Source: an uncultured Acidobacteriota bacterium
Lineage (GTDB): Bacteria; Acidobacteriota; Thermoanaerobaculia; UBA5066; Gp7-AA6
Direction: 5' to 3'
Length of the DNA: 64,000 bases
Assembly (NCBI GenBank): GCA_963764715.1
Contig: CAVXTP010000021.1
Coordinates: forward strand, 288,001 to 352,000
The translations under genes and the position numbers were made by a program. Positions 30,127 to 58,710 of this stretch are shown piece by piece. Positions within the stretch are counted from its first letter, which is position 1. The number at the start of each line of letters is the position of its first letter. The notes under the pieces were generated by a model. It ran no database searches and was not told the DNA's origin. It saw only the letters and a list, made by a program, of their open reading frames with translations.

Positions 30127-30153
30127 CTACTGGAGCGAGAAGGTCTTGACCAC
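30127..30153 (-). pseudogene. Orphan duplicate of the SLH gene 3' end (VVKTFSLQ*)
   Basis: GTGGTCAAGACCTTCTCGCTCCAGTAG; 23/24 nt identical to the last 8 codons of the gene ending at 30324. Confidence 0.85.
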
Positions 30154-30280
30154 GACCCGACCACCGAAGGCAGACCCCCGGCAGTAGGGAGTCGGCCACC
30201 GAAGGCAAACCCTCGGCAGTAGACAACGCTGGCCGAGAGGCCAGCGGTAACTCACGCCGTGCAAGGCACGGCGGTAACTG
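30154..30280 (-). repeat. Two-hairpin element copy 1, with a diverged 63-nt copy nested at 30191-30253
   Basis: AGTTAC-hairpin A-T^[nested copy]^T-hairpin B-TC; homologous to 42484-42547 and 56402-56465. Confidence 0.9.
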
Positions 30281-30323
30281 ACCGTCGCGACTTGATCGCC
30301 GTAATCGTGTGGCGTCGTCGAAG

Positions 30324-32744
30324 TCACTGGAGCGAGAAAGTCTTGACCACGAACGCGGCCATCTGCCCGCGGGTGGCGAGGGTCAGCGGGCAGTACTTGC
30401 CGCCGCCGCAGCCTCCGGTGATGGTTTCGGCGGCGAGCTGCTCGATCCAGTCGGCGAAGAGGGACGGGCAGGCCACGTCGGTGAAGGTCCCCGCGCAGGC
30501 CGGAGGGACGTAGCTCGAGCCGTGCTCGGCCTTCAACAGGAAGGGTGCCATCTGGTCGCGCCGCACGGGGTTGCCGGGACAGAACTTGCCGCCGCCGCAC
30601 CCTCCCGTGATCCCTTCCGCGGCGAGCGCCTCGATCCACGGAGCGAAGGTCGAGGGACAGGGAACGTCCGAGAACGTCCCGGCGCAGGGGGGCGGCGTGT
30701 AGCAGAGCCCGTGCTTGCCTCTCAGCAGGAAGACCGCCATCTGCTGGCGCAGCGTGTTGTCGTTGACGCCGTAGTTGCCTCCGCCGATGCCCGCCGTGAT
30801 GCCGTTCGAAACCAGCTTCGTGACGAAAGCGTAGAACTGCTGCCCCAGAGGCACGTCGAGGAAGTCCGAGACGAACGCCTTGAGCAGCGTCCCGACGGTT
30901 CCGTCCGTGTTCACGACCTGGATGTCGTTGGCGAGTCCGGCGGACAGCGGCGGAGTCTTCGCCGTGATCGTCGTCGCCGATGAGACGTTGATGTTCGTCG
31001 CGGGCTGGCCGCCGACGGTGACCGTCGCGCCCGCCGCGAAGTCGGTGCCCTTGATCGTGATCGTCGTGTTGCCGGCGGGGGGCCCGGAGGCGGGCGAGGC
31101 GGAGAACGCCAGGCCCTGCGAGAACTCGGAGGTGTTGCCGAGGGGATCGGTGGCCGTCGCGGTCACGCGGGTTCCCGGGACGGTCGCGACGGGCAGCGTC
31201 ACGTCGAACGCGACGTCGCCGTTCCCGTCGCTCGTGACCTGCGCCGTGCCGAGCCACGTCTCGCCCTCGAGGAACTCGCGGGGGAAGTTCGAGCAGGCGT
31301 TGGCGTAGAAGTCGAGGTCGTAGACGGTCGCCGCCTTCGAGTGGAGGACGCCCTGGATCCGGGTCGTCGCTCCGGTCGTCACCGACGTGAATAGGGGGAA
31401 GTTCTGCATGCCGTTCCCACCGGTATCGGTGTCCCCCGGGTCGTTGGGGGTCACGCCCTCGGGGCTCCCGGCCGGCATGACGTCGATGCCGAGCCCGGCG
31501 TTGCCGTGGATGGAGTTGCCTCGGATGACGTTGCCCTGGCTGAACGGCAGGTAGACGCCGTCGCCGGTGCCGCCGTTGAATTTCGTGTTCGCAATGACGT
31601 TGGCCTCGCCGGGTCCGATCCCGCCGATCGTGTGGTTGCCGCCGCCGACGTGAAGTCCCCGGTCGCCGTTGCCCATCGCGACCGTCCCCGTGACGTCGAC
31701 GCCGATGTAGTTTCCCTGAACGACCATTCCCGAAGCGGCCCCCGACTGGCCCAGGACGAGCCCGATGCCGCCGTTGTTGCTGATGACGTTCCGGGCCGCG
31801 GCGGTCGTGCCTCCGATCGTGACGGCCGGCGAGTCGCAGGTGATCCCGCGGTTGCTGTTGCCGAGCGGCGAGGCTCCCGTCACATCGACGCCGATGTAGT
31901 TGCCGGCGATGAGGATGTTGGCGGCCGGGGTGCCTCCGAGCTCGATGCCGTTCGTGTTTCCCGAGATCACGTTGCGGGCGCCGGCGGCCGTCCCGCCGAC
32001 CGTCACATCGGTGACGCGGGTGAGCACCAGCCCCGATCCGTTGGTCGGCAGACCGGCGGTCCCGGCGGCGTTGGTGCCGATGAGATTGCCCTGGATCGTG
32101 AGGCCGTGGATGCCCCCGACGGGGTCGAAGGCGACCTTGTCGTGGCCGCCCGAGATCAGGTTGCGTGCGGCCGGCGCGGTGCCGCCGATCCGGACGTTGG
32201 TCGGCGCTGCGCCGGTGACCTGGGCCGTCGGCGTCGAGTTGGACGGCGCCGAGGTCCCGGTCGCATCGGTTCCGAGGAAGCAGCCTTCGATCGCGGCGTT
32301 GCTGGCGGAATTCTGGAGCCGGATGCCGGCGAACTGGCACCCGTGGACGTTCAGGCCGCGGATCGTCGTGTCCGCCGCGGCGACATCGAGACAGATCGAC
32401 CCGGCGGGAAGGCCGGACCCGTCGATCTCGATCTGCAGGACGGTGTTCAGCCCCTGCGTCACGTCGTGGGTGTTGGCCGAGGAGCCCGACTGCGTGTAGC
32501 CGTCGATCGTGACCGGCGACGTGATCGCCGGCAGGGCGGTCGCGGGCGCGATCGCGTGGACTCCCGAGCCGACGATGTTGAAGGCGATCGTGTCGGCTCC
32601 GGCGGCGCCGTTGGCGTCGAGGATGGCCTGGCGGAGGGACCCGACTCCCGCGTCGGCATTCGTCGTGACGGTAAACGTCCCGGCGGCGAGCCTGGCGGTG
32701 GCGCAGAGCAGAGCGGCGCCAGCGATTCCGAGGCGTCGGATCAT
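30324..32744 (-). CDS. Secreted beta-helix + IPT/TIG + SLH-like surface protein (paralog 13)
   Basis: Same architecture; AGGAGG RBS before ATG 32744. Confidence 0.85.
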   Translation of the reverse strand: MIRRLGIAGAALLCATARLAAGTFTVTTNADAGVGSLRQAILDANGAAGADTIAFNIVGSGVHAIAPATALPAITSPVTIDGYTQSGSSANTHDVTQGLNTVLQIEIDGSGLPAGSICLDVAAADTTIRGLNVHGCQFAGIRLQNSASNAAIEGCFLGTDATGTSAPSNSTPTAQVTGAAPTNVRIGGTAPAARNLISGGHDKVAFDPVGGIHGLTIQGNLIGTNAAGTAGLPTNGSGLVLTRVTDVTVGGTAAGARNVISGNTNGIELGGTPAANILIAGNYIGVDVTGASPLGNSNRGITCDSPAVTIGGTTAAARNVISNNGGIGLVLGQSGAASGMVVQGNYIGVDVTGTVAMGNGDRGLHVGGGNHTIGGIGPGEANVIANTKFNGGTGDGVYLPFSQGNVIRGNSIHGNAGLGIDVMPAGSPEGVTPNDPGDTDTGGNGMQNFPLFTSVTTGATTRIQGVLHSKAATVYDLDFYANACSNFPREFLEGETWLGTAQVTSDGNGDVAFDVTLPVATVPGTRVTATATDPLGNTSEFSQGLAFSASPASGPPAGNTTITIKGTDFAAGATVTVGGQPATNINVSSATTITAKTPPLSAGLANDIQVVNTDGTVGTLLKAFVSDFLDVPLGQQFYAFVTKLVSNGITAGIGGGNYGVNDNTLRQQMAVFLLRGKHGLCYTPPPCAGTFSDVPCPSTFAPWIEALAAEGITGGCGGGKFCPGNPVRRDQMAPFLLKAEHGSSYVPPACAGTFTDVACPSLFADWIEQLAAETITGGCGGGKYCPLTLATRGQMAAFVVKTFSLQ

Positions 32745-32823
32745 GTTGGCCTCCTGATGGGAGCGGAAGATTTCACGTTCCGGAGTGAAAATCGACGGAA
32801 ATCGGCTCGCCGGGGCCGGGGGA

Positions 32824-35223
32824 CTACTGCAGGTTGAACGTCTTGACGATGAACACGGCCATCTGCCCGCGCGTGTTCGGGCTCGACGGGCAGTAGTTGC
32901 CGCCCCCGCACCCGCCGGTGATGCTTTCGGCGGCGAGCTGCTCGATCCAGTCGGCGAACTGCGAGGGGCACGGGACGTCGGGGAAGTCACCCGAGCACGC
33001 CGGCGGCACGTAGGTCGAGCCGTGCTCGGCCTTGAGCAGAAAGACGGCCATCTGGTCGCGGCGGACCGGATTGCCCGGACAGTAGTTGCCGCCGCCGCAG
33101 CCTCCCGTGATCCCCTCGGCCGCGAGCGCCTCGATCCAGTTGGCGAAAGTCGACGGGCAGGCCACGTCGCCGAAGACTCCCGCGCAGGGAGGCGGGACGT
33201 AGCAGAGGCCGTAACGGCCCTTGAGAAGGAAGACGGCCATTTGCTGGCGCAGCGTGGCCGCGTTAACGCCGTAGAGGCCTCCGCCGACTCCCGCCGTGAT
33301 GCCGTTGGCGACGAGGGCCGTGACGTACAGGTGGAACTGCTGCGCGTCGGGCACGTCGAGAAAGTCCGAAACCCATCCGTTGATGAGGATCCCGGCGCTG
33401 CCGTTCGTGTTCACGACGGTGACGTGGTTGACCGTCCCCGGCGCAAGGGCGGGGACCGTGGCCGAAAGCTGTGTGAAGGATGCGACGTTCACGTTGGACG
33501 CCGCGGCCGGCCCGATCGAGACCGTCGCGCCGTCGAGGAAGTCCGTCCCATGGACGGCGACCGACGCGCCGCCCGCCGGGTCCCCGGAGGTTGGCGCGAC
33601 CGAGAAGACCATCCGCTGCGAGAACTCGGAGGTGTTGCCGGCCGGATCGGTCGCCGTCGCGGTCACCGATTCTCCGAAGCCGGGGGTGACGACGTCGAAG
33701 GTCGCGATGCCGGAGACGCTGCTCGTCGTCGTCGGCGCAACGCCGATCAGGTAGGAGCCCTGGAGGAAATCGTGCGGGCGCGCCGCACACGCCGGATTGC
33801 CGAAGAACTCGAGCTGGTAGGCCGTCGAGGGCGCCCCGTGCAGGATGCCCTGGACCTCCGTGCCGCCCGGGACCTGGACCGCGGACGTGATGATCGGAAA
33901 ATTCTGCAGGTTGTTCGGGCCGGAGTCGCCGTCGAGGGGGTCGTTCGCGTCGACGCCGATCGACCCGAGGTCGATGCCGAGGCCCGCGTTCTCCCAGATG
34001 TTGTTCCCGCTGATCGTGTTGCCGTTGCCGTTCTGGATCCGGATCCCGCCGAAGATGCCGGTCCCGTTGTTCTTGATCGTGTTGCCTTCGCCCGGGCTCA
34101 ACCCGCCGATGACGGAGTTGTTTCCGTTGACCACGATTCCCCATTGCGCATTGCCGAGCGGCCCGGCCTGTCCGTCGCTCGCTCCGATCGAGTTGCCGAG
34201 GACGCTCGTGCCATTGGCCGAGATCTCGATGCCGTTGGCGCCGCTCGCGGCGACGACGTTGCCGACACCCGGCTCACCGATCGTATTGGCCGGGCCCTCC
34301 ACGCTGATCCCGTAGGTGCCGTTGCCGAGAGGGAGCGTCCCGGTCACGTCGGTCCCGATGAAATTTCCCTCGACCGTCGAAGACGTCACCGGGTCCCGCA
34401 GTCGCACGCCCCCGGCGAAGTTGCCCGAGATCACGTTGCGCTCGCCCGCGGTCGGACCGCCGATGCGGACGTCCGTGCCCGTGAGCGCCAGCTCGACCCC
34501 GCCCTGGGTGCCGGGGAGCGCGACCGTGCCGGTCGCATCGGTGCCGATCAGGTTGCCCGCGATGACGTGTCCGCTTCCGGCGCTCGCGTAGATGCCGTCG
34601 ATGACGTTGGCCGAGATGACGTTGCGAGCGGCCGGCGCGGAGCCTCCGACCGTCACGTCCGCGCCTCCGGAGATGAAAACTCCGGCCTCGCCGTTGCCGG
34701 CCGCAGCGCCGCCGGCGGGGTCCGTCCCGATGAAGCAACCCTCGACCTTCACGTCCGAGGCGCCGTCGATGCGAATTCCGGAATGCCCCCGATTGATCGC
34801 GAGCCCTCGCACGACGGTCCCGGTCGCCGTGGAGGCGATCTTGAGCACGGCCGCGTCGGTCGCCGCCCCGGTGTTCGTGCCGTCGATCTCGACGAGGATG
34901 ACCGCGCTGGTCCCCTGGTCCGGGGGGTTGGTGTTCGCGCTCGAGCCCGGCTGCGTGTAACCGTCGATCGTCACCGCGTCCGTGATCGTCGGCAGAGCGC
35001 TCGCCGGAGCGATCGTGTGGACGCCGCCTCCCGGAATGCCGAAGGCGATGGTGTCATCGCCGGCATTGCCATTGGCGTCGAGGATCGCCTGGCGCAGCGA
35101 GCCGACGCCGGAGTCGGCCGTGGTCGTGACCGTGAAAACCGCGGCGAGGGCGGGGATCGACGCGAGCGCAACCAGGACGGGGACGAGAATCGCGGACAGC
35201 CGACGGCCTCGTACGGAGAACAT
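32824..35223 (-). CDS. Secreted beta-helix + IPT/TIG + SLH-like surface protein (paralog 12)
   Basis: Same architecture; AAGGAG RBS. Confidence 0.85.
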   Translation of the reverse strand: MFSVRGRRLSAILVPVLVALASIPALAAVFTVTTTADSGVGSLRQAILDANGNAGDDTIAFGIPGGGVHTIAPASALPTITDAVTIDGYTQPGSSANTNPPDQGTSAVILVEIDGTNTGAATDAAVLKIASTATGTVVRGLAINRGHSGIRIDGASDVKVEGCFIGTDPAGGAAAGNGEAGVFISGGADVTVGGSAPAARNVISANVIDGIYASAGSGHVIAGNLIGTDATGTVALPGTQGGVELALTGTDVRIGGPTAGERNVISGNFAGGVRLRDPVTSSTVEGNFIGTDVTGTLPLGNGTYGISVEGPANTIGEPGVGNVVAASGANGIEISANGTSVLGNSIGASDGQAGPLGNAQWGIVVNGNNSVIGGLSPGEGNTIKNNGTGIFGGIRIQNGNGNTISGNNIWENAGLGIDLGSIGVDANDPLDGDSGPNNLQNFPIITSAVQVPGGTEVQGILHGAPSTAYQLEFFGNPACAARPHDFLQGSYLIGVAPTTTSSVSGIATFDVVTPGFGESVTATATDPAGNTSEFSQRMVFSVAPTSGDPAGGASVAVHGTDFLDGATVSIGPAAASNVNVASFTQLSATVPALAPGTVNHVTVVNTNGSAGILINGWVSDFLDVPDAQQFHLYVTALVANGITAGVGGGLYGVNAATLRQQMAVFLLKGRYGLCYVPPPCAGVFGDVACPSTFANWIEALAAEGITGGCGGGNYCPGNPVRRDQMAVFLLKAEHGSTYVPPACSGDFPDVPCPSQFADWIEQLAAESITGGCGGGNYCPSSPNTRGQMAVFIVKTFNLQ

Positions 35224-35299
35224 GCGTCTCTCCTTTTGAGTCGTGTCTGCTCGACTTCGAGAATCCTATCCCGCGACGGGGACCATGGAACGCGAACCC

Positions 35300-37726: not shown

Positions 37727-37863
37727 TTTGTGCCGACCTTTCTTGGGGGACCGAAGGGGAGCCCGGGGAGTCTATCCCGGTCCGGCCGAGCGGGGGGACC
37801 CGTCGAGTGCGGAACGAACGAGCGTCGGAGCGGCCGACGAGGCCGCCCCGACACTCCGCACGG

Positions 37864-40059: not shown

Positions 40060-40075
40060 CAGCAGCTCCTTGAAG

Positions 40076-40267
40076 TCATTGCAGGCCGGAGGTCTTCGTG
40101 ATGAAGACCGCCATCTGCCCGCGTGTGTTCGGGTTGAGGGGACAGTCGTTGCCGCCGCCGCAGCCGCCCGTGATGTTCTCGCCGGCCGCCGCCTCGATCC
40201 AGTTGGCGAAGGTCGAGGGACATGGGACGTCGGCGAACATGCCGACGCACGGCGCCGGGGTGTGACA
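40076..40267 (-). pseudogene. Orphan degenerate SLH repeat / 3'-end remnant
   Basis: Reads [63 protein letters not shown]. Lies in the same frame as the upstream gene, after its TGA. Confidence 0.85.
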
Positions 40268-40276
40268 TCTGTGAAA

Positions 40277-42463
40277 TCACTGGAGTGAGAAGGTCTTGAC
40301 CACGAAGACGGCCATCTGGCCCCGGGTGGCGTTGTTGAGCGGGCAGTAGTTGCCTCCGCCGCAGCCGCCGGTGATCTGTTCCGCATTGAGCTGCTCGATC
40401 CAGTCGGCAAACAGCGACGGGCAGGCGACGTCGGTGAAGGCGCCCGCGCAGGCCGGCGGGACGTAGGCCGGGCCGTGCTCGGCCTTCAGCAGGAACGGGG
40501 CCATCTGGTCGCGCCGGACGGGATTGGTGGGGCAGAAGTTGCCGTTGCCGCATCCCCCGGTGATCCCCTCGGCGGCGAGCGCCTCGATCCAGTCGGCGAA
40601 GGTCGAGGGGCAGGCCACGTCGCCGAAGGTTCCCGAGCAGGGCGGCGGGACGTAGCAGAGGCCGTGGCGGGCCTTGAGCAGAAAGACCGCCATCTGCTGG
40701 CGCAGGGTCGGTTGGTCGACGCCGTAGAGACCGCCGCCGACGCCGACGGTGATGGCGTTGGAGACGAGCGTCGTGACGAAACCGTAAAACTGGTGACCAC
40801 CGTCCACGTCGAGGAAGTCCGAGACCCAACCCTTCACGAGGGTCCCGGTGGTGCCGTCGGGAGTCGTCGCGACCACGTCGTTGACCGTTCCCGGCGGCAG
40901 CGCGGGAGACGTCGTCGTCAGGGACTGGTCGTTGACGAAGGTTACCCCGGCGGCGGCGCCGCCGAACGTCAGCGTGGTCGGGTCCGCGAAGTCCGTGCCG
41001 GAAACGGCGATGGCCGTGCCGCCCGCGCCGGGGCCCGATGTCGGACTGATCGAGAAGATGATGCGCTGCGAAAACTCCGAGGTGTTCCCCGCGGGATCCG
41101 TCGCCGTGGCCGAGATCCGGGCGCCCGGATCGGTCACGACCGGCAGGATGACGTCGAAGGTCGCGTTGCCGCTCCCGTCCGTCGTGACCTGCGAGGAGCC
41201 GAGATAGGTCTCGCCCTCCAGGAACTCGCGCGGGAAGTTGGAACAGGACCGGTTCTCATAGAAATCGATCTCGAAGAGGGTCGACGGAGCGCTGTGGAGC
41301 TTGCCGATGATTCGAGTGCTCCCCGAGCCCTGCGGACCCAGGTGCCCGATGGAGGTGAGGACGGGAAAGTTCTGCTGCAGGTTGGCGCCGCCGTCGGCAT
41401 CCATCGGGTCGTTGAAGTTCGGGCCCTCCGTTCCGATGTCGATGCCGAGCGCGCCGTTGTCGTGAATGGAGTTGCCGCGAACGGAGTTGTTCCATCCGCC
41501 GTTGCTACTCAGCAGGACTCCTTGCGCCGCGTTGTACGCGATCACGTTCGCCTGCCCGGGACCGACGCCCCCGATGAGGGCGTCGTGACCCCCGAAGTTG
41601 GTCAGTACGCCGATGCCGTTTCCGAGCGGCCCCGTTCCGGCCGCGTTGACGCCGATGAGGTTCCCGTAGACCACGTCGACGGTCTGGACCTGCTCCATGA
41701 AGATCCCCAGGGCGTTGCCCGAGATCACGTTGCCTTCGCCCGCCCCGGCTCCTCCGATCAGCATGCCGGCGCCGAAGCCGTTCACGCACGTGATGCCGGT
41801 GCTTGTGTTGCCGAGTGCCACGGAGCCGGTCTTGTCGGTGCCGATGAGATTGCCCTGGATCACGCCGCCGTTGATCCCCGCGGTGATTCCAACTGTGTTT
41901 CCGGAGATCAGGTTTCTATCCGCGGGCGAGGGGCCGCCGATCACGCTGCCCGGGGTGGACGCATTGATGCCCTCGCTGTTGCCGAGGGCGACCGCTCCCG
42001 AGGCGTCGGTTCCGAGGAACGTGCCCTTGACGGTGCACCCGCTGACTCCTCCGTTGATCTGCACGCCGGCGCCGAAGCCGTGGATTGCAAGGCCCCGGAG
42101 AAGGCTGCCGTCGTGGGATACGAACTGAATGCCCGTTCCCGGCGGCACGGCGCTGCCATCGAGCTCGATCAGGATGACGGCGTTCGTGGCGACCGGGTCG
42201 GTGTTGGAGCTCGCGCCCGGCTGCGTGTAGCCGTCGATGGTCACCGTCTCTGTCAGTGCCGGCAGGACCGAAGCGGGGGCGATGACATGGACGCCGGCAC
42301 CCGGGATGTTGAACTCGATCGTGTCGGGGCCCGGGTTGGCGTTGGCGTCGAGAATGGCCTGTCGCAGGGAGCCGGCCCCGGAGTCATTCGTGTTGGCGAC
42401 AGTGAAGGTAGCGGCAGCCAAAGGCGCGGACACCAGGTACAAGAGAACGGCGAGCTTTCTCAC
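40277..42463 (-). CDS. Secreted beta-helix + IPT/TIG + SLH-like surface protein (paralog 9)
   Basis: Same architecture. GTG start; its AGGAGG RBS overlaps the TAG of the orphan tail. Confidence 0.85.
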
Positions 42464-42471
42464 GAGTCCTC

Positions 42472-42483
42472 CTATTGCAGGTT
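42472..42483 (-). pseudogene. Orphan duplicate of the SLH gene 3' end (NLQ*)
   Basis: AACCTGCAATAG versus the upstream gene end AACCTGCAATGA. Confidence 0.65.
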
Positions 42484-42547
42484 GACCCGACCACCGAAGG
42501 CAGACCCCCGGCAGTAGGGAACGCCGTGCGAAGCACGGCGGTAACTC
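42484..42547 (-). repeat. Two-hairpin element copy 2
   Basis: GAGTTACCGCCGTGCTTCGCACGGCGTTCCCTACTGCCGGGGGTCTGCCTTCGGTGGTCGGGTC. Confidence 0.9.
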
Positions 42548-42572
42548 GAATCTGACTTGACCGCGATTCTGC

Positions 42573-44987: not shown

Positions 44988-45039
44988 GAAGGACTCCTTA
45001 TGGATCGTCACCGGAACGGGTCCGGAGGTTGGATTGCGG

Positions 45040-47244
45040 TCACTGGAGATTGAAGGTCTTGACCACAAACGCGGCCATCTGGCCGCGCGTGGCGAGGTTG
45101 AGCGGGCAGTAATTGCCTCCGCCGCAACCGCCGGTGATGCTTTCCGCATTGAGCTGCTCGATCCAGTCGGCAAAGAGCGAGGGGCAGGCAACGTCGGCAA
45201 ATGTCCCCGCGCAGGCGGGAGGGACGTAGCTCGAGCCGTGCTCGGCTTTCAGGAGGAAGGGAGCCATCTGGTCGCGGCGGACGGGATTGGCGGGGCAGAA
45301 GTTTCCATTGCCGCAGCCCCCGGTGATGCCCTCGGCCGCGAGGGCCTCAATCCAGTCGGCGAAGGTGGAGGGGCAGGGCACGTCGGCGAACGTCCCGGTG
45401 CAGGGCGGCGGAACGTAGCAGAGGCCGTGGCGGGCCTTCAACAGGAAGACCGCCATCTGTTGACGCAGCGTCGGCTGGTCGACGCCGTAGTTACCGCCAC
45501 CGACCCCCGCGGTGATGCCGTTGGAGACGAGGGTCGTGACGAACGAGTAGAACTGCTGGTTGGCCGGGACGTCCAGGAAGTCCGCCACCCAGCCCTTGAT
45601 GAGAGTTCCCGTCGTACCGTCCGGCGTCGCAACGACGATGTCGTTGACCGTGCCGGGAGAGAGCGCGGGGCTCGTCGCCGTGAGGGTGTGATCGTCGACG
45701 AATCCGGGGCCCGCTGTCAGGCCGCCGATCGTCATCGTCGTCGGGTTGGCGAAGTCCGTGCCCGCGACGTTGAGAGCCATTCCGCCGGCGGCCGGCCCGG
45801 AAGCCTGGAACATACGGAAGATGATCCGCTGCGAGAACTCGGACGTGTTGCCGTTCGGGTCGGTCGCGGTGACGGAGACGCGGGCGCCCTGTTCGGTCGC
45901 TGCGGGCAGAATGACGTCGATGGACGCATGGCCGGTGCCGTCGGTCGTGACCTGCGAGGATCCGAGATAGCTCGGGCCTTCGAGGAACTCTCTCGGGAAG
46001 TTGGAGCAGGCGGCGTTGGCGTAGAAGTCGAGGTCGAAGGTCGTCGAGGCCGTGCTGTCGAGCTTGCCGACGATGTGCGTCGTGGCCCCCGTCGCGACCG
46101 TCTGGAGGATCGGAAAGTTCTGGAGACCGTTCGCGCCATTGTCGGCGTCGGCGGGATCGTTGAAGTTCGGCTGTCCGTCGCCGTTGAGGTCGATGCCGAG
46201 GCCGGCGTTGTCATGGATCGTGTTGCCCCGGATGACGTTGCGTTGACCCGAGTTCGAGATAAGGATTCCGGCGCCGCCGTTGTAGGCGATCGTGTTGGCC
46301 GCGCCGGGGGCGAGCCCACCGATCGTGGCGTCGTTGGACTCGTGGATGTTGATCCCGCCGAGCGCGTTGCCGAGCGGTGCCGTGCCATCGGCCGTCGTGC
46401 CGATCTGGTTGCCCTGGAACACGACGGCGGCCTGTAGGAAGACGGCGTAGAGACTGTTGCCCGAGATCACGTTGCCGGCGCCGGGTGCGGTTCCGCCGAC
46501 GGTCGCCGGGGCATTGGAGTAGAGGCCGTCGGCATTGGGGAGGGCGTGCATGCCGGTGGCATCCGTGCCGATGAGATTCCCCTCGACGCGCGATCCCGCC
46601 GCGCCCCCGACGAGCTGGATGGCTCCCGCAAAGATGGCGGCGGTGTTTCCGGAAACGAGATTCCGGTCGGCGGGCGTCGTTCCACCGACGAGGTCGCCGG
46701 GGGCGTTGATCTGGATCGCCTCGTTGTTGGGGCTGGCGGCCATGCCGGTGGGATCCGTTCCGAAGAAGCATCCGCGGATGACGTTGCCGCCGCCGGCGCC
46801 GGGGTTGAACGTCTGCAAGCCCTGGAGCCAGCGATTGACGACCAGGCCCTGGACCGTGCTGTTGCCCCCGGTGATGTTCAGCCCGAGTCCGTTGGCCACG
46901 AGGCTGCCGTCGAGCTCGATTCGAAGGACGGCGTTCGTCCCGACCGGGTCGGTGTTGACGCTCGATCCGGGCTGCGTGTATCCGTCGATCAGGACGGGGC
47001 CGGTCAGGAACGGCAGTGCCGTCGCCGGAGTAATCGTGTGGACGCCCGTGCCCGGGATATCGAAAGCGATCGTGTCGGCGCCCGCAGCCGCGTTGGCGTC
47101 GAGGATGGCCTGGCGCAACGAGCCAGCGCCCGAGTCGTTCGTGTTGGTCACGGTAAACGTCGCGGCGTCGAGCCGATCCGCCGGCGAAAAGAGCCAGGCG
47201 AGCGCGAGGCCGAGACCGACGACCGACGAGGTGCGAATCTTCAA
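45040..47244 (-). CDS. Secreted beta-helix + IPT/TIG + SLH-like surface protein (paralog 7)
   Basis: Same architecture; TTG start with AAAGGAG RBS. Confidence 0.85.
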   Translation of the reverse strand: MKIRTSSVVGLGLALAWLFSPADRLDAATFTVTNTNDSGAGSLRQAILDANAAAGADTIAFDIPGTGVHTITPATALPFLTGPVLIDGYTQPGSSVNTDPVGTNAVLRIELDGSLVANGLGLNITGGNSTVQGLVVNRWLQGLQTFNPGAGGGNVIRGCFFGTDPTGMAASPNNEAIQINAPGDLVGGTTPADRNLVSGNTAAIFAGAIQLVGGAAGSRVEGNLIGTDATGMHALPNADGLYSNAPATVGGTAPGAGNVISGNSLYAVFLQAAVVFQGNQIGTTADGTAPLGNALGGINIHESNDATIGGLAPGAANTIAYNGGAGILISNSGQRNVIRGNTIHDNAGLGIDLNGDGQPNFNDPADADNGANGLQNFPILQTVATGATTHIVGKLDSTASTTFDLDFYANAACSNFPREFLEGPSYLGSSQVTTDGTGHASIDVILPAATEQGARVSVTATDPNGNTSEFSQRIIFRMFQASGPAAGGMALNVAGTDFANPTTMTIGGLTAGPGFVDDHTLTATSPALSPGTVNDIVVATPDGTTGTLIKGWVADFLDVPANQQFYSFVTTLVSNGITAGVGGGNYGVDQPTLRQQMAVFLLKARHGLCYVPPPCTGTFADVPCPSTFADWIEALAAEGITGGCGNGNFCPANPVRRDQMAPFLLKAEHGSSYVPPACAGTFADVACPSLFADWIEQLNAESITGGCGGGNYCPLNLATRGQMAAFVVKTFNLQ

Positions 47245-47302
47245 GGCGAACTCCTTTGTCTCCCCGGAGGGGGACGCCACGTTTGGGACGGCGAACGGGT
47301 GG

Positions 47303-47650
47303 CTAGCGCGGAGGAGGTGCGCGCGAGGAGCGCGATTCGGAGAAAGCCGGGTCGAGGAGCGCGTCGTCGCCGTCGGGATGAACGCCGCCGGCGTCTTGCG
47401 GCGGGGGCGTCGTCGGTCCCTGGCCGATCCGGAGGGTCGCATGGGCCGGCCCGTGGAAAGCGGATGCGGCGCCCGACTCGAGACGGTCGGCGTCGTCGTC
47501 GGGGAGCGGGTCGGCCGTTGCTCCGCGCTCGACGGGAAGCAGAGCGAGGGAGACGAGAAGAAGGAGAACGAGGGCAGGAAGCGCCCGGCGCCAGCGGGCG
47601 CTTGCCGATGTCCCTCGACGGGAACGCCGGTTCCTCGGTCGGCAGGTCAC
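47303..47650 (-). CDS. Small exported/membrane leader peptide ending in a RAPP motif (putative arrest peptide)
   Basis: GTG overlaps the upstream TGA. Basic N-region, hydrophobic ALPALVLLLLVSLALLPV segment, low-complexity linker, C-terminus SRSSRAPPPR*. Confidence 0.55.
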   Translation of the reverse strand: MTCRPRNRRSRRGTSASARWRRALPALVLLLLVSLALLPVERGATADPLPDDDADRLESGAASAFHGPAHATLRIGQGPTTPPPQDAGGVHPDGDDALLDPAFSESRSSRAPPPR

Positions 47651-49938: not shown

Positions 49939-49946
49939 GGTGTCCT

Positions 49947-52013: not shown

Positions 52014-52035
52014 GTTTGTCTCCTACGACAAGCCG

Positions 52036-53799
52036 TCATGGCGGTCCGGCGCAGCCGGCCGTGATGTGCTCCGCGTAGAGCTGCTCGATCCAGGCGGCGA
52101 AAAGGGAAGGGCAGGTCACGTCGGCGAACTGGGGCTGGCAGGTCGGCGGAACGTAGCTTCCGCCGTGCTCGGTCTTCAGCAGGAAGACGGCCATCTGGGC
52201 GCGCGTGACGGGCGCGCCGGGGCAGAAGAGGCCCCCCCCACAGCCTCCGGTGATCCCCTCGGCCGCGAGCTGCTCGATCCAGTCGGCGAAGAGCGACGGA
52301 CACGGCACGTCGGGAAAGGTCCCGGTGCAGAAGGGGGGCGTGAACGCGGCGCCGTGCTCGGTCTTGAGGAGGAAGACCGCCATCTGCGCGCGCGAGATCG
52401 CGGAGAGCGGGCAGTAGTTGCCGCCGCCGCAACCGGCCGTGACGCCCTCGGCCGCGAGCTGTTCGATCCAGTCGGCGAACAGGCCGGGGCAGGCGACGTC
52501 CGAGAACTGGCCCGCGCAGGCCGGCGGAACGAACGCCGCGCCGTGAGCGATCTTCAGCAGGAAGACGGCCATCTGGTCGCGCCGTACCAGATTCTGGGGA
52601 CAGTAGAGGCGCGCCAGCCCCGGCAGCGTCAGACGGTAGATGGTGCCGTCGCCGTTGGCGCCGCCCGAGGCGGTGACGCCGTAGAACCGACCATCCGGGC
52701 TCTCAGTCAGCCCGGAAGAGGGGAAGCTTCCGGTGGGCTCGTCGAAATCATGCAGTTTCGTGTAGACCCCGTTGAGACTCAGCTGGTAGCTGGTCCCGCC
52801 GCCGTGGTCGCCGCCGAGCACGTTCACCCCGTACAGCAGCCCGTCGCTCCCCTGCATCGGCTGGCCGGGGCCGACGCCGTCATCGCCGGAGACGTCGAGG
52901 GAATGGATCGGCTGGAAGCTGCCACCGGTGGTCAGTCGAAAGACGGCGCCGCTGCCGGGCCCGCTGCACGCCCCCACCAGATCGCCGTCGACCGGAATGA
53001 GGCCGTCGATCGCGTCGTAACAGGAAGCCGGGTCGAAATCGTAGATCGTCGTGAGGTTCCCGTTCTGTGTGATCTGGAAGACCGTGCCGACGCCGTTCTG
53101 GCCGCCGCGCGAGGTGATGCCGTAGATGTTCCCGTTGTCGGCGAGGGCGAGTGAGCCTTTCGGCTGATTGCCCTCGTCGAGCGCGAACGCGTGCATCGTC
53201 GAGAAGCCGCCGTCGAAGCGGAGGCGAAAGACGGTCCCGCAGGAATCGTCCTCGGTGCAGGCGGGATCGCCTCCGACGATCGTCGTCCCCCAGAGGTCTC
53301 CCGGCTGGGGCTCGATCAGCCCCGCGGTCAGGCCGAATCCATCCGCGGTCTGGAAACGGTGGACGATCGCGAAGTTTCCATCCGTGTCGATCCGGTAAAC
53401 CGTTCCGCAAAGGGAGACGCAAAGCGTCGTCGAGCTGCCGTCGCCGGGTGTGATTCCGTAGAAGTTTCCGTCGCTCGCCAGCAGCAGGTCTCCCGCGGGG
53501 TTCTGGCCGTCGTCTCCTCCGGCGAACTCGTGGACCATCGTGACGGTTCCGAACCCGTCCATCCGAAAGACCGTGCCGCAGCCGCCGGTGCAGTTCGCGC
53601 TGCCGCCGAGCACGGTGACGCCGTAAAAGTTTCCGTCCGGCCCCAGGACGAGCCGCCCGTACGGTACCCTCGGATCGGCCGGCGCGGGCCCGAGGTCGTT
53701 GATGACGTCGTACGTCTGGGCGGGGAGGGCGAGCGGGCCCGTCGAGGCGAGAGCGATCGCCAGAAATCGGATCGGGAGAGACGAACGTCTTCTGGTCAT
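52036..53799 (-). CDS. Secreted GloVer-repeat (TIGR03803-like beta-propeller) protein with SLH-like repeats (paralog 4)
   Basis: Repeats of DGNFYG.T..GG....CGTVFR...G......H.F...DG..P...L, followed by Cys-rich SLH-like repeats; no IPT domain. Confidence 0.8.
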   Translation of the reverse strand: MTRRRSSLPIRFLAIALASTGPLALPAQTYDVINDLGPAPADPRVPYGRLVLGPDGNFYGVTVLGGSANCTGGCGTVFRMDGFGTVTMVHEFAGGDDGQNPAGDLLLASDGNFYGITPGDGSSTTLCVSLCGTVYRIDTDGNFAIVHRFQTADGFGLTAGLIEPQPGDLWGTTIVGGDPACTEDDSCGTVFRLRFDGGFSTMHAFALDEGNQPKGSLALADNGNIYGITSRGGQNGVGTVFQITQNGNLTTIYDFDPASCYDAIDGLIPVDGDLVGACSGPGSGAVFRLTTGGSFQPIHSLDVSGDDGVGPGQPMQGSDGLLYGVNVLGGDHGGGTSYQLSLNGVYTKLHDFDEPTGSFPSSGLTESPDGRFYGVTASGGANGDGTIYRLTLPGLARLYCPQNLVRRDQMAVFLLKIAHGAAFVPPACAGQFSDVACPGLFADWIEQLAAEGVTAGCGGGNYCPLSAISRAQMAVFLLKTEHGAAFTPPFCTGTFPDVPCPSLFADWIEQLAAEGITGGCGGGLFCPGAPVTRAQMAVFLLKTEHGGSYVPPTCQPQFADVTCPSLFAAWIEQLYAEHITAGCAGPP

Positions 53800-53807
53800 G
53801 CGGCGTC

Positions 53808-53858
53808 CTACTGAAGGGTGAAGGTCTTGACGATCAACACGGCCATCTGTCCGCGGGT
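53808..53858 (-). pseudogene. Orphan duplicate of the SLH gene 3' end (TRGQMAVLIVKTFTLQ*)
   Basis: Begins 6 nt after the TGA of the gene ending at 53865, in the same frame. Confidence 0.85.
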
Positions 53859-53864
53859 GCCGGG

Positions 53865-56288
53865 TCATGGCAGAAGTCCGAAGGTCTTGACGATGAACGT
53901 CGCCATCTGTCCGCGCGTGATCGGGTTGCCGGGGCAGTAGAGAGGCGGAGAGACGCTGCAGCCGGCGGTGATGCCGCGGGCGACGAGGTCCTCGATCCAG
54001 TCGTCGGCGAAGGCGCCCTGGGGCACGTCGTCGAAGACCGTTCCGGTGGCGGGCGGAGGAACGTAGCCGGGCCCGTAGGCCGTGTTGAGGAGGAAGACGG
54101 CCATCTGGGCGCGCGTGACGGAAGCGGCCGGGCAGTAATTCCCGCTGCCGCACCCGGCGGTCAGGCCCTGCCGCTGGAGCTCCTCGATCCACGGGGCGTA
54201 GATGTTCGAGGCCGGCACGTCGGGAAAGACGGTGCCGGTCGCCGGCGGCGGGGTGAAGCAGAACCCGAGGCGGGCCTTGATGAGAAATACGGCCATCTGG
54301 CCGCGGGTCGTCGGGTTGTCGACGCAGTAGAAGCCGCCGCCGCAGCCGACCGTCACGCCGTTGGAGACGAGCCGCGTGACGAAGTCGTGGAACTGGTGCG
54401 CCGCCGGGACGTCCAGGAAGTCCGCCACCCAGCCCTTCAGGAGCGTGCCCGCCGTCGTGTCCGGGTTGGTGACGACGACGTCGTTGAGCGAGCCCGGCGG
54501 CAGAGCCGGGGCGTCGGCCGTGATCTTCGTGCCGCTCACGCGGACGACGTTGGAGGGCGCAACTCCGGCGATCGCGACGGAGACGGCCGGATCGAAGTTC
54601 GTGCCGGAGATCGAGACCGGCGTGCCGCCGGCGGCCGGGCCCGAGGCCGGCGTGATGGCGAAGACGATCTGCTGCGAGAACTCGGAAGTGTTCCCGTCGC
54701 CGTCGGTCGCCGTCGCCGAGACGGGGGACCCGGCGGGAATCGTGACCGAAAAGGTCGACGCCAGGTCGGCGAATCCGCTTGCATCCGTCACGTAGAGGGC
54801 CGACGCGAAGTAGTGCTCGCCCTGGAGGAAGTCGCGCGGCCGGAAGTTGCAGGCGTTCCAGTAGAAGTCGACGGTGACGGCCGTGTCGGGCGCGCCGCGG
54901 TACGCGCCCTCGATGTGCGTCGTGCCGGCGCCGGGCGTGACGGATCGGATGAGCGGAAAGTTCAGCAGGCCGTTCGAGCCCGTGTCGACGTCGCCGTCGT
55001 CGTTGGGCGTGACGCTGTCGTGATCGAGATCGATCCCCGTGGCCGGATACCCGGTCCCCGTGGTTTCCCGGTTGCGGAAGATGCTGTTGCGTCGAATCGA
55101 CGTCCGGAACGTGTTGGCCATCGCCACGCCGCTCGACCCGTTGTAGGCGATGACGTTCCCCACCCCGAGGCCGGTCCCTCCGATCTGGTTGTCCATGGGG
55201 AACGTGAATGCCCACCCGCTGTTGATGCCGCTCGCATAGTTTCCGAGCGCCGCCGTGCCGTTGACGTCCGTGCCGATCCGATTCCCCTGGATCGTGTTGT
55301 CGCTTCCTCCCCAGAGCTGAATCCCGTGGAGTCCGTTGGCGGAGATGACGTTGCCCTCGCCCGCCCCGCCACCGCCGACGAGGTTGCCGTTGGAGCCGAG
55401 GTAGATGCCGGACCCGCTGTTCGGAAGCGCGTCGGTTCCGGTGACGTCGGTTCCGATGAAGTTCCCCTGGATGGTCCACCCGTCGGCGAGATACAGGTTG
55501 AGTCCGGAGCCGTCGTTGCCGGACACGACGTTCCGAGAGCCGGGCGCCGCGCCGCCGATCACGCCCGATCCGGAAGTGACCACTCTGATTCCGTCCGATC
55601 CGTTGCCGACCGGTGCCGTCGCGCCCCGGTTCGTTCCGACGAAGTTGCCGACGATGACGTTGCCGCTTCCGCCGTCCACGGCGACCCCGTCGTTCGTGTT
55701 TCCCGAGATGAGATTGCGGGCGCCGGGAGTCGTTCCGCCGATGCGGTTGTTCTCGGAGCTGACGCGGATGCCGGTGTCGTTGGCGAGGGCCGACGTGCCG
55801 GCGGCGTTCGTGCCGATGAAGTTGCCCTCGACGACGTGTCCGCCGGTCCCGCCTGCGTAAACCCCGGCGCCGTAGACCCCGGCGCCGACACGGTTGATGA
55901 CGAGGCCGCGAATCGTGCTCCCGGAGCCCTGGAGCTCGAGGCCGTTGAAGCCGGCTGCGAGATTCGTGGCGTCGATCTCGATGAGGAGCACCGCGTCGTT
56001 GCCATCGGCCAGCGTGTTGGGTGAGGCGCCCGGCTGCGAGTAGCCGTCGATCGTGACGAACTCCGTGATCGCCGGCAGCGGCGTCAGCGGCGTGATCGTG
56101 TGGACCCCGGCGCCGGGGATGTTGAACACGATGAGGTCCTGTCCGGACAGGGCGTTCGCGTCGAGGATCGCCTGGCGCAAAGATCCCGCGCCGGAGTCGC
56201 TCGTGTTGACGACGGTGAAGGTGACTCCACCGGCCAGCAGCGGTCCGGCGGCCGCCAGAAGCAACGCGCCGGCGGCAAGACGCATCAT
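53865..56288 (-). CDS. Secreted beta-helix + IPT/TIG + SLH-like surface protein (paralog 3)
   Basis: Same architecture with a distinct SLH subtype ([11 protein letters not shown]). Alternative start at 56378 overlaps the orphan-tail stop. Confidence 0.85.
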
Positions 56289-56374
56289 CCTGTCGCGCCA
56301 CGGAGAAAAAGCGCCGGGGCGGCTGAGTGCCTGGCCACCCCGGCTTAACGCGACGGCCTTCGGAGGACGACTCG

Positions 56375-56401
56375 TCATTGCAGGTTGAAGGTCTTGACGA
56401 T
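56375..56401 (-). pseudogene. Orphan duplicate of the SLH gene 3' end (IVKTFNLQ*)
   Basis: ATCGTCAAGACCTTCAACCTGCAATGA; differs from the adjacent gene end (IVKTFSLQ). Confidence 0.85.
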
Positions 56402-56465
56402 GACCCGACCACCGGAGGCAGACCCCCGGCAGTAGGGAACGCCGTGCGAAGCACGGCGGTAACTG
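56402..56465 (-). repeat. Two-hairpin element copy 3
   Basis: Differs from copy 2 internally by one base (a G-T pair becomes G-C in hairpin B). Confidence 0.9.
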
Positions 56466-56508
56466 TCCGCTGAGCCTTGACCGACGGGACGTCGTGTCAT
56501 CACTGCTG

Positions 56509-58710
56509 TCACTGAAGTGAGAAGGTCTTCACAATAAACACGGCCATCTGTCCGCGGGTGCTCGAGTTGTCGGGGCAGTAGAGGGGCGGCATGGCCTGAC
56601 ATCCGCCGGTGATCTGCTCGGCGGCGAGGCGCTCGATGAAGTCGACGGCGGGCGCGCCCGGGCAGGCGACGTCCTCGAACACGCCGGCGCAGGCGGGCGG
56701 GACGTAGCTCGAGCCGTACTTGGTCTTGAGGAGGAAGACCGCCATCTGTCGTCGGGTAACGAGGTTGTTGGGGCAGAAGTTGCCTCCGCCGCAGCCGGTG
56801 GTGATGCCCTGGGCGGCAAGCTCCTCGATCCAGTCGGCGAAGGTCGAGGGGCAGGCGACGTCGGGGAAGGTGCCGGAGCAGGGGGGCGGGACGAAGCAGA
56901 GACCGTTCTTTCCCTTCAGCAGGAAGACCGCCATCTGCTGGCGCTTGGTGCCCTGGTCGACGCCGTAGAGGCCGCCCCCGACGCCGACCGTGATCCCGTT
57001 GGAAACGAGGGTCGTGACGAAGTTGTAGAAGATGTGCGCGCCGGGAACGTCGAGAAAGTCGGAGACCCAGCCGTTGACGAGAGTGCCGACCGTGCCGTCC
57101 GGCGTCGTCGCGACGACGTTGTGGACCGTGCCCGGAGCCTGCGCCGGGGACGAAACCGAGAGCTGATGATCGTTGAGGAAGGTCACGGTCGCCGCGGCGC
57201 TGCCGAAGGTCAGCGTCGTCGGGTCGGCGAAGTCGGTGCCGTGGACCTCGATCGGCATTCCGCCCGTCGAAGGACCGGAGGCCGGGAAGATCGAAAAGAG
57301 GATCCGCTGCGAATATTCGGAGGTGTTGCCATTCGGGTCGGTTGCGGTGATCGAGATGCGCGCGCCGGCCTCGGTCTCGACCGGCAGAGTGACGTCGATC
57401 GCGAAGTCTCCGTTGGAGTCGGTCGTCGCCTGGGAGGAGCCGAGATAGACCTCGCCTTCGACGAACTCGCGCGGGAAGTCGGCGCAGGCCGGATTGGAGT
57501 GGAAATCGAGCGTGAACGTGGTCGACGGAGTGCTGTTGAACTTGGCCACGATCCTCGTGCTGCCCGCACCCTGGGGGCCGAGGTGCTCGACCTGCCGGAT
57601 GATCGGGAAGTTCTGCGAATGGTTCGCTCCGTCGTCGGCGTCCTGCGGGTCGTTGAAGTGGGGTTCTCCGCCGCCCAGACCGATGCCGAGCCCGCCATTG
57701 TCGTGGATCGAGTTGCCCCGGATCGGGTCGTCGAAGCCTCCGGCCTCGATGCGGACCCCGTCGGCGCTGTTGTAGGCAATCTCGTTGGCCTCGCCCGGGC
57801 CGACTCCGCCGATGATGTTGTCGTTCCCGCCCGTCGTCGTCTGGATGCCGAAGCCGTTCCCGAGCGGGCCCGTCCCCGCGGCGTTCACTCCAATCCGGTT
57901 GCTGCGCACGACGTTCAAACCGCCGGCCTGGGAGAGAACGACGCCGATCCCGTTGCCCGAGATGACGTTGCCTTCGCCGGCGCCGGAGCCGCCGATCGTC
58001 GTGCCCGTTCCGCTGAAGTTCGCGCAGAAGATCCCGCTCTGCGTGTTGCCCATCGGGAGCATGCCCGTCGCGTCGGTGCCGATGAGATTGCCCCGGATCA
58101 GGGTGCCGTGCTCCTGCACGTAGACGCCGTGAGAATTCCCGGAGATCAGGTTCCTTTCGGCCGGGGTCGCCCCGCCGATGATCGTGCCGCTCGCGGCCGG
58201 GCTGATGGCGGTGCCGTTCCCCAGCGCGTTGGCGCCGCTCGGATCGGTCCCGAGGAAATTGCCGGTGATCATCGTCCCGACGGGAGCGCCGGCAGCCTGG
58301 ATCGCGAGCGTGCCCCATCGGTTCATGACGAGTCCGCGGACCGTCGGCGGGCCCACGCTGGTGAAATTGAACCCGATTCCTCCCGCGGCCATCGCGCTGC
58401 CGTCGAGCTCGATGAGCAGCACGGCGTTCGTGCCGACGGGGTCGGTGTTTACGCTCGCGCCCGGCTGGGTGTAGCCGTCGATGACGACCGCTTCCAGGAT
58501 GGTGTCGAAATTCGTCGCGGGCGAGATCGTGTGGACCCCGGCCCCTGGGATGTTGAACGCGATCGTGTCGGGTCCGACAGTCGCATTCGCGTCGAGGATC
58601 GCCTGGCGCAGCGACCCCGCGCCCGAGTCGTTCGTGTTCGTCACCGTGAAGGTGGCGGCCGCCAACGGGCCAGCGAGAACATGGAGAACGATCCCGACGA
58701 GCGTTTTCAT
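56509..58710 (-). CDS. Secreted beta-helix + IPT/TIG + SLH-like surface protein (paralog 2)
   Basis: Same architecture; RBS overlaps the upstream TAG (TAGGAG). Confidence 0.85.

Follow-up and report, generated by a model that had tools for sequence, protein, structure and literature searches.

The 64,000-nt stretch of DNA analyzed here (the window) comes from the genome of an uncultured member of the Thermoanaerobaculia. This genome is called G000, its closest relative is G013, and other G-codes denote genomes of the same genus. The window contains an array of SLH-family surface-protein genes. In three spacers of the array (30154-30280, 42484-42547, and 56402-56465), a first-pass annotation had described a near-identical two-hairpin element, joined at a Phe codon to an orphan duplicate of the last codons of the gene family. 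We confirmed the element, the orphan codons directly after it, and the Phe junction at all three loci. At each locus, the intact end of an SLH-family gene with its stop codon was separated by a 25-43 nt spacer from the element, which ran directly into the orphan tail. Coordinates are positions in the window; the element and the array genes lie on the minus strand. The features are listed below, with the evidence in brackets (ORF, open reading frame).

30324-32990, minus strand: SLH-family surface-protein gene with intact tail (30326-30324), precedes locus 1 (ORF list, tail reading; Pfam SLH, TIG, and Beta_helix over cut-off)
30281-30323, minus strand: spacer 1, with TCAAG at 30295-30291, 11 nt before AGTTACC (sequence)
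30254-30280, minus strand: 5' half of the outer copy, namely CAGTTAC, hairpin 1 (30273-30255), and the first T of the TT linker (sequence, fold)
30191-30253, minus strand: inner copy, nested in the linker of the outer copy (GGCGT^TCCCTAC), with stems that covary with those of the outer copy (sequence, nhmmer, alignment, fold, G013 orthologue)
30154-30190, minus strand: 3' half of the outer copy, namely the second linker T, hairpin 2 (30189-30156), and TC (sequence, nhmmer, fold)
30127-30153, minus strand: orphan tail 1, GTGGTCAAGACCTTCTCGCTCCAGTAG (30153-30127), VVKTFSLQ*, stop TAG, 27 nt (sequence)
42573-45200, minus strand: SLH-family gene with intact tail, precedes locus 2 (ORF list, tail reading, Pfam)
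42548-42572, minus strand: spacer 2, with TCAAG at 42560-42556, 9 nt before AGTTACC (sequence)
42484-42547, minus strand: element copy 2, covariance-model core 42484-42545 (sequence, nhmmer, covariance model, fold)
42472-42483, minus strand: orphan tail 2, AACCTGCAATAG (42483-42472), NLQ*, stop TAG, 12 nt (sequence)
56509-58710, minus strand: SLH-family gene with intact tail, precedes locus 3 (ORF list, tail reading, Pfam)
56466-56508, minus strand: spacer 3, with TCAAG at 56480-56476, 11 nt before AGTTACC (sequence)
56402-56465, minus strand: element copy 3, core 56402-56463 (sequence, nhmmer, covariance model, fold)
56375-56401, minus strand: orphan tail 3, ATCGTCAAGACCTTCAACCTGCAATGA (56401-56375), 27 nt, unlike the SLQ tail of the neighboring gene (sequence, tail reading)
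53808-53864, minus strand: element-free orphan tail, PGTRGQMAVLIVKTFTLQ*, 57 nt, right after the stop of gene 53865-56378 (tail reading)

Four flanking genes were tested, and TIG and SLH domains scored over the Pfam cut-offs, with Beta_helix also in two. The C-terminal consensus of all array members was ...GQMA(V/A)F(I/V)(V/I/T)KTFxLQ*, and the intact genes directly upstream of the elements ended with the same last codons (...AVF(V/I)VKTF(S/N)LQ*). The junction fell at the first Phe codon in copies 1 and 3 and at the second in copy 2. Orphan tail 1 was identical to the intact tail at 30350-30324 in 25 of 27 nt. Orphan tail 2 directly abutted the GGAGGA and GTG start (42463-42461) of the next SLH gene. 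Orphan tail 3 read IVKTFNLQ*, whereas the tail of its neighbor gene read IVKTFSLQ*, the mismatch reported earlier. Locus 1 is a nested arrangement and not a tandem pair, with a 63-nt inner copy between the two linker Ts of the outer copy; the same nested form was present at the orthologous place in G013. The TCAAG reported 9-11 nt upstream of the element was found at all loci (11, 9, and 11 nt before AGTTACC at loci 1, 2, and 3). The DNA 5' of the element had been called otherwise unrelated between copies, but it was partly related, as G(A/G)TCAAG-N9-11-AGTTACC recurred in other copies of this genome and its relatives.

Three side observations concern the array. Gene 53865-56378 ends atypically (GLLP*), and the tail at 53808-53864 behind it seems to be what is left of a paralogue that was deleted or fused. 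On the minus strand of window 26961-61016, the list of ORFs of at least 150 aa holds spurious long frames that run through elements and orphan tails (such as 40277-42706 and 52036-56454), so automatic gene starts there are likely wrong. One metagenome contig (run X4, depth 5, 88% likeness) joins 42546 to 42585 and skips 38 nt of spacer, stop codon, and tail end; judging from this single contig, the element of a relative may lie closer to or inside the tail.

The 62-nt element core opened with a 5-nt head (consensus GTTAC); hairpin 1 (8 bp) and hairpin 2 (14 pairs) followed, joined by a 2-nt linker, and two more nucleotides closed the core. Its length was nearly constant (60-64 nt in aligned copies, mostly 62). 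The final two nucleotides were mostly, but not always, TC (126 of 210 copies examined). Covariation of the hairpins, also part of the first-pass annotation, held up in 43 copies. Paired cells made up 92.1% versus 83.8% in shuffles, and none of 500 shuffles reached that level. Nine of 22 pairs had changed on both sides, double changes being found in five of the eight hairpin-1 pairs and in the closing pair of hairpin 2. The sequence of hairpin 2 was invariant. Folding z-scores ranged from -4.0 to -5.5. The two-hairpin structure is not a product of chance. The sense strand folded better than its complement (RNA, -36.0 versus -26.5 kcal/mol; DNA, -18.4 versus -16.8 kcal/mol) because of conserved G-U pairs, which were present at columns 36-55 in 38 and at columns 41-50 in 37 of the 43 copies. 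In one copy (contig 21:252740-252808), an extra small hairpin (ACGAACGCGGGTC TTC GACCCGCGTTT) sits inside the hairpin-1 loop.

Known structured elements were also considered. The Rfam search gave no match at gathering score on the window, and on 13 copy-bearing loci at E values up to 1 it gave just tRNAs and sub-threshold chance matches. An intrinsic terminator was rejected, since at the three window loci hairpin 2 is followed by TC and coding-like sequence and not by a T-run. An integron attC site has inverse core and core sites (RYYYAAC ... GTTRRRY) that pair at the base of one hairpin, and it lies beside intI. The element was judged by eye not to be one (intI was not searched for), as its 5' GTTACCG misfits GTTRRRY and its other end has no complementary box. 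The conserved motifs of group II intron domains 5 and 6 and of hammerhead-type three-way junctions, judged by eye, were absent, and these structures were rejected as well.

The element was dispersed through the genome. A fuzzy search followed by nhmmer gave 60 matches (59 with the core model), placing about 60 copies on 20 of the 26 contigs. More than half (31/59) sat in loops of GTAG-type REP (repetitive extragenic palindromic) sequences (GTAGGGGCGGC ... GCCGCCC), and their orientation relative to the GTAG head was always the same; 413 such heads were counted in this genome. Remaining copies lay beside all four tRNA-Ser genes, tRNA-Gln, tRNA-Arg(TCT), and tRNA-Ala(GGC). The junctions at tRNAs lay in tRNA-Ser anticodon loops, T-loops, and D-loops. 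Some copies were nested in another copy or in another palindrome type, and copies were also found antisense inside tRNA fragments. No split copy carrying cargo was seen among the element matches. About eight of the 59 copies followed gene 3' ends, in the same orientation as the genes, and each was followed by a duplicate of that end. They were the three window loci, SLH-type loci at contig 21:393 kb and on contig 13, a different gene family at contig 21:360 kb (two copies), and uvrB on contig 22. Many copies in relatives also followed SLH-type tails. The link of the element to SLH tails is real but partial, with further copies at uvrB, tRNA, and REP sites.

A second palindrome type (CCCCTCACCC(C/T)GACCC ... 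GGGAGAGGGG) also bears the element in its loop in several genomes (contig 6:25381-25441 in G000, and loci L053, L064, L069, L073, and L074). Downstream of tRNA-Ser(CGA) (contig 1:65248-65620, G000), there are two 170-nt units, each with a 30-nt tRNA 3' fragment and a nested element pair in the T-loop. The native 3' flank of this tRNA gene has a T-arm-like GTCGTGGGGTC.

Covariance model R1 detected the element in all 36 same-genus genomes, with 1-90 matches each. In two sister families it gave matches in 0/17 and 1/7 genomes, the single one being weak (E 2.8e-4). The exact 20-mer of hairpin 2 matched 103 stretches in a species-representative collection, and among the matches listed (80 of 103), all came from metagenome-assembled genomes (MAGs) labeled Thermoanaerobaculia or Acidobacteriota. 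By these searches, the element appears to be confined to one uncultured genus of soil bacteria in the Thermoanaerobaculia.

Junctions were analyzed with 210 copies from this genome and 138 loci of relatives, the latter being a non-random sample chosen by model score, uvrB query, or exact 20-mer. Among copies outside REPs, the sequence behind the element very often recurred intact shortly upstream. An upstream duplicate was defined as the 14 nt after the element recurring with at most two mismatches within 450 nt upstream, and 73 of the 210 copies had one. Tandem units, in which the upstream copy itself follows an element, were removed, and the rest were collapsed by their first 10 nt into 21 distinct sites. 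The trinucleotide before the intact copy was TTC at 11 sites, TTT at four, CTT at two, ATT at one, and another at three. In this genome TTC and TTT have background frequencies of 1.46% and 0.31%, jointly 1.8%. GTC and CTC, which are commoner (2.5% each), would match the last three bases of the element and give longer microhomology with its end, yet they occurred at none of the 21 sites. This speaks for a specific need for T-T(C) and against simple microhomology. When the roughly nine SLH-type sites were counted as one, about ten unrelated site classes were left, with TT at the junction in nearly all. A junction preference thus exists (15 of 21 sites with TTC or TTT), as the first-pass annotation had supposed, but most copies lie away from the SLH tails to which it had tied them.

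The precise 3' boundary at T-TC, proposed for the array, followed the same rule at uvrB, in tRNA loops, and in nested copies, whose junctions read GGCGT^TCCC and CCTTC^GGTGG. The cut may fall at T^TC, with the element ending at the last hairpin-2 pair (as proposed in the first-pass annotation), or at TTC^, with TC belonging to the element. T^TY is favored by a copy that has TT at its end and TTT as its target, and by the nested copies, which fit T^TC exactly. Against T^TC, the REP-embedded copies of one subfamily end in CC.

Duplications ranged from 10 to about 150 nt, and an intact gene always remained. They measured about 150 nt on contig 13, 66 nt at uvrB, 52 nt at tRNA-Ser(GGA), and 10-27 nt in the window. 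The tRNA-Ser(GGA) duplication extended from the anticodon loop (TTTC^CAAG) to beyond the 5' end of the gene. Units of duplicate, spacer, and element also occurred in tandem: one to four at tRNA-Ser(GGA), depending on the genome (four in G017), two at uvrB in G013, and three at the SLH tail of another MAG. The other side of the element was, as had been claimed, imprecise, or it ran on from the end of a homologous gene. In tRNA T-loops and inside other copies, a few bases were lost or gained at the 5' junction, and the start of the element varied from TACC to GAGTTACC. At gene ends, the left side held the whole duplicated target and 0-45 nt of extra sequence. Part of this extra sequence, G(A/G)TCAAG-N9-11, recurred in many copies and is similar to the GGTCGTAG head found in REP-embedded copies. 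A rule that the 5' junction falls inside a stop codon (T|GA left, T|AG right) was rejected; it held at loci 1 and 2, uvrB, and contig 21:360 kb, but was inconsistent in relatives.

Empty and filled sites could be compared at the single-copy gene uvrB, for which 29 orthologous 3' ends were available (L084-L113 minus L108). At 24 of them there was no element and a single tail. In G000, G013, and G012, the element stood at TTC^GAAA with a 66-nt duplication; the functional uvrB copy of G000 has TTT, not TTC, before the duplicated part. In G003, the element stood at a different TTC and was followed by a 9-nt orphan. In G005, it was present without duplication. The five filled loci were alike on the left side (CGAG(C/G)CT-GA-CC..G-AGTT) and differed at the right junction. 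In G012 and G013, the orphan and functional copies differed just in the 3' half of the orphan. This pattern fits a unit of tail, spacer, and element with its right end joined at T-TC and its left side continuous with homologous DNA, as the first-pass annotation had inferred. A single old insertion, after which more events took place at the element's 3' end, would fit equally well.

The array itself differed between strains, in line with the first-pass annotation. Its flanks (window 15.3-29.5 kb and 60.6-64 kb) were 82-89% identical to G013, and the distance between them was about 31.5 kb here versus about 17 kb in G013. Close counterparts in G013 were missing for about six genes around locus 2, and loci 1 and 3 had orthologues there. 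The orthologue of locus 1 in G013 bore the spacer type found here at locus 3, and two neighboring G013 genes had an identical unit of tail, spacer, and element before different orphan tails. Within the array, judging from these alignments, the unit appears to be shuffled between paralogues. Because the orphan tail supplies homology on the right-hand side, ordinary recombination can shuffle the unit once it is present. Copies 1 and 3 share the junction position and have G013 orthologues, and may therefore stem from a common event. Of the three window junctions, locus 2 alone clearly needs an event of its own, since it uses the second Phe codon and has a 10-nt repeat. Derivation of all three loci from a single ancestral junction by duplication is accordingly possible for loci 1 and 3 and does not account for locus 2.

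Candidate enzymes were searched for with profiles. As the first-pass annotation had stated, no enzyme for the mechanism was found in the window. Y1_Tnp gave five matches in this genome. No copy of the element lay within 5 kb of four of them, and the fifth had one at -2.5 kb. A short Y1_Tnp gene (contig 17:16536-16853, L227, 172-aa frame) had GTAG-type REP heads on both sides and resembles a REP-associated tyrosine transposase (RAYT); the same arrangement was present in six relatives of the genus. Y1 genes also occurred in the sister families that lack the element. The Y2 transposase (PF04986) was not found in the genome, a weak negative, as the control search gave matches in 0 of 14 genomes. 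Three further Y1_Tnp domains lie in frames of 320-336 aa (contigs 6:495354, 4:29189, and 7:33522) with no REP or element nearby. Such long forms occur across the order, suggesting a separate, possibly domesticated, Y1 family.

We consider it probable that the element is a small, non-autonomous, structured DNA repeat, mobile or recombinogenic, with one precise end at T-T(C) and an imprecise 5' side, and that the orphan tails arise by survival of intact genes. The base of hairpin 2 would join the target within T-T(C), often in the loop of a palindrome (a REP, the anticodon, T-, or D-loop of a tRNA, or the element's own linker or hairpin). The 5' side would be resolved loosely, with outcomes between the loss of a few target bases and the duplication of 10 to about 150 nt, or it may run on from the end of a homologous donor gene. 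If the site is close to a gene's 3' end, just the products with an intact gene would survive, leaving the native end as an orphan tail after the element. Two TTC codons lie within 27 nt of the SLH stop, which would make the SLH tail a favored survivor site. Once in the array, the unit of tail, spacer, and element would spread and be shuffled by ordinary recombination between paralogues. The chemistry most consistent with the junctions would be a cut of single-stranded DNA (ssDNA) at T^TC, with the 3'-OH of the element joined to the 5' end of the target, as in HUH (histidine-hydrophobic-histidine) nucleases. The data directly show dispersal, structure, the junction rule, duplications, empty sites, and differences between arrays, whereas mobility itself, the sequence of events, and the chemistry are inferred. 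More tentatively, the element is possibly the substrate of an unrecognized strand-transfer activity, outside known transposase families, that would cut ssDNA at T^TC, preferably in hairpin loops, join the hairpin-2 end, and leave the other end to replication and repair. Such one-ended copy-out would yield duplications of up to at least 150 nt, rewrite gene 3' ends, including those of SLH arrays, and leave partial copies around all tRNA-Ser genes.

Several results weigh against the preferred reading of a mobile repeat. Many junctions are orthologous or paralogous to one another, which reduces the 73 to about ten independent site classes. Among REP-embedded copies, endings in CC, TG, or TT are as frequent as TC, which leaves the cut ambiguous at the nucleotide level. 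No enzyme could be linked to the element in the RVT_1, Y1, and Y2 searches. Y1_Tnp was present in 24 of 36 genus genomes, unrelated to element copy number, and G005 (94% complete) had 90 copies and no Y1. The seven RAYT-like loci of the genus were flanked by plain REPs, with an element-bearing REP at one of them (in G003). Element orientation showed no bias relative to local GC skew (27 versus 32). The strong G-U conservation hints at an RNA role, which a mobile element does not explain. No RNA run matched the locus. Four metagenome runs, from a set in which the best DNA matches shared at most 0.17 of the sequence words, gave no interpretable excision product, empty-site joint, or polymorphic insertion; they yielded short contigs of paralogues and relatives, none spanning the locus. 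Finally, the element-free orphan tail at 53808-53864 indicates that recombination alone can orphan tails.

That last tail would also be expected if the element were an inert REP-like palindrome or 3'-untranslated region (3'-UTR) structure placed by chance behind one SLH gene, and if tandem gene duplication, unequal crossing-over, gene conversion, and deletion in the array had produced the loci and orphan tails out of one or two ancestral junctions. The shared junction position of loci 1 and 3, both with G013 orthologues, the locus-3 spacer before the G013 orthologue of locus 1 (a mosaic expected from recombination), the same unit at two adjacent G013 genes, and the different array lengths agree with it as well. 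A passive repeat leaves unexplained the exact 3' end after TTC or TTT at uvrB, in two tRNA-Ser anticodon loops, in the other gene family of contig 21, and in the element's own hairpin and linker. Also left without an explanation are the empty and filled uvrB sites and locus 2, where the junction is at the second Phe codon and the 10-nt repeat is too short for homologous exchange. We regard it as unlikely. Selection for a functional structured RNA (a 3'-UTR stabilizer, terminator, or small RNA), with the duplications as side effects, is compatible with a mobile repeat and would account for the strand-specific fold, the conserved G-U pairs, the invariant hairpin 2, the constant 62-nt length, and the co-orientation of gene-following copies with their genes. 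The absence of an Rfam match and of a T-run after hairpin 2, the variation from 1 to 90 copies between close relatives, and the copies nested in one another or antisense in tRNA fragments make it a decidedly improbable account.

The first-pass annotation had favored a dedicated cassette-remodeling system with the element as a recombination signal for SLH genes or gene ends. Several findings are in line with such a system: the 3' junction is precise and the left side runs on from a homologous gene end, one and the same unit precedes different orphan tails, array content differs between strains, and many copies in relatives follow SLH-type tails. The footprint is genuine and its geometry had been read well, but the element proved to be a genus-wide repeat. 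About eight of the 59 copies follow such gene tails, whereas 31 sit in REP loops and others at tRNAs and uvrB, with the same rule and duplications at uvrB, tRNAs, and other copies. Nine further gene junctions of the array within the window had no element, profile searches (Y1, Y2, and reverse transcriptase) revealed no recombinase in or near the array, and the SLH tail is explicable as a survivor site by its two TTC codons beside the stop. We regard this proposal as very unlikely. Insertion by target-primed reverse transcription, also suggested earlier, would make the element the 3' end of an RNA copied in the manner of SINEs and LINEs (short and long interspersed nuclear elements) or of diversity-generating retroelement homing. 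It would give a precise 3' junction with variable 5' ends and variable target duplications. The observed footprint fits, with its precise 3' end, its 5' extension of 0 to about 45 nt upstream of AGTTACC, and its duplications of 10-150 nt, and the conserved G-U pairs favor an RNA fold. RVT_1 was not found in this genome (96.8% complete) and was found in one of 44 same-genus genomes, compared with 36 of 36 for the element. This model was dropped as hardly credible.

Gene-less repeats such as REPs and miniature inverted-repeat transposable elements are common in bacteria, and the movement of most of them is unsettled. The footprint of the present element is unusually readable, with an exact T-T(C) end, a loose end, and duplications that spare the gene hit. 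Natural empty and filled single-copy sites and 1-90 copies among close relatives make its mechanism testable, and it may lead to an activity that no known transposase family covers. In the annotation of these genomes, the element accounts for orphan tails of genes, fragments of tRNAs, and false long ORFs. It is also one route by which large surface-protein arrays acquire portable homology that promotes gene gain and loss.

Finally, the element was compared with known systems. No published description of it was found in the literature on Thermoanaerobaculia repeats, REPs, and RAYTs; the supplements of PMC3733652 may list acidobacterial REP families. Like REPs and REPINs (REP doublets forming hairpins) with their RAYTs, the element is short, structured, high-copy, and extragenic; half of its copies are embedded in GTAG REPs, and the genome has a REP-flanked short Y1 gene. 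REP ends can supply stop codons to neighboring ORFs (PMC3733652). Unlike REPs, the element has no GTAG head of its own, its core starts with GTTAC, and it has two unlike hairpins instead of a single palindrome of 20-40 nt. It also occurs without any REP arms, and the window copies have no GTAG head. The T-T(C) junction rule and the long flanking duplications are features of the element; in the main text of PMC3733652, the words 'duplication' and 'target site' are absent. A cognate RAYT flanked by the repeat was not found, the element-bearing REP being present at one of seven loci.

Elements that encode a transposase offer other parallels. REP loops are targets of IS1397, the IS110/IS1111 family, and ISPpu10. 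ISPpu9 also inserts in REPs (PMC8450116). The element shares with these insertion sequences (IS) its frequent insertion in REP loops, but they encode their own transposase, whereas it is gene-less and 62 nt long. The SINE/LINE footprint combines a precise 3' junction, a variable 5' end, and target duplications of variable length. Unlike SINEs and LINEs, the element has no 3' A-tract, and 43 of 44 genus genomes have no reverse transcriptase. IS91/ISCR elements undergo one-ended rolling-circle transposition with a Y2 HUH transposase and use GTTC or CTTG as target. Like them, the element has one fixed and one variable end, and several of its junctions read GTTC or CTTC; unlike them, it is a gene-less 62-nt sequence whose fixed end is the 3' end of the folded strand.

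IS200/IS605 elements have strand-specific subterminal hairpins, act on ssDNA, and insert next to a short target (TTAC for IS608). Strand transfer links their 3'-OH to the 5' end of the cut site, and both ends are clean, without duplication. The element resembles them and their miniature derivatives, the palindrome-associated transposable elements (PATEs), in that a short motif marks its target (at 15 of 21 sites, TTC or TTT). It differs in its imprecise 5' junction, its duplications of up to 150 nt, its hairpins unlike each other, and its lack of replication-strand bias. No autonomous Y1 element with the same ends was found in this genome (TnpB was not searched for). The HUH chemistry proposed in the first-pass annotation would fit in geometry. 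No copy flanks a Y1 gene except the REP-embedded one at one of the seven RAYT-like loci, and Y2 was not found in a search with a silent control. HUH nucleases attach to the 5' phosphate and join the 3'-OH of the element to the 5' end of the target. In its folded strand, its short T-rich target, often in loops, and its apparent 3'-end joining, the element bears a resemblance in geometry to the substrates of such nucleases.

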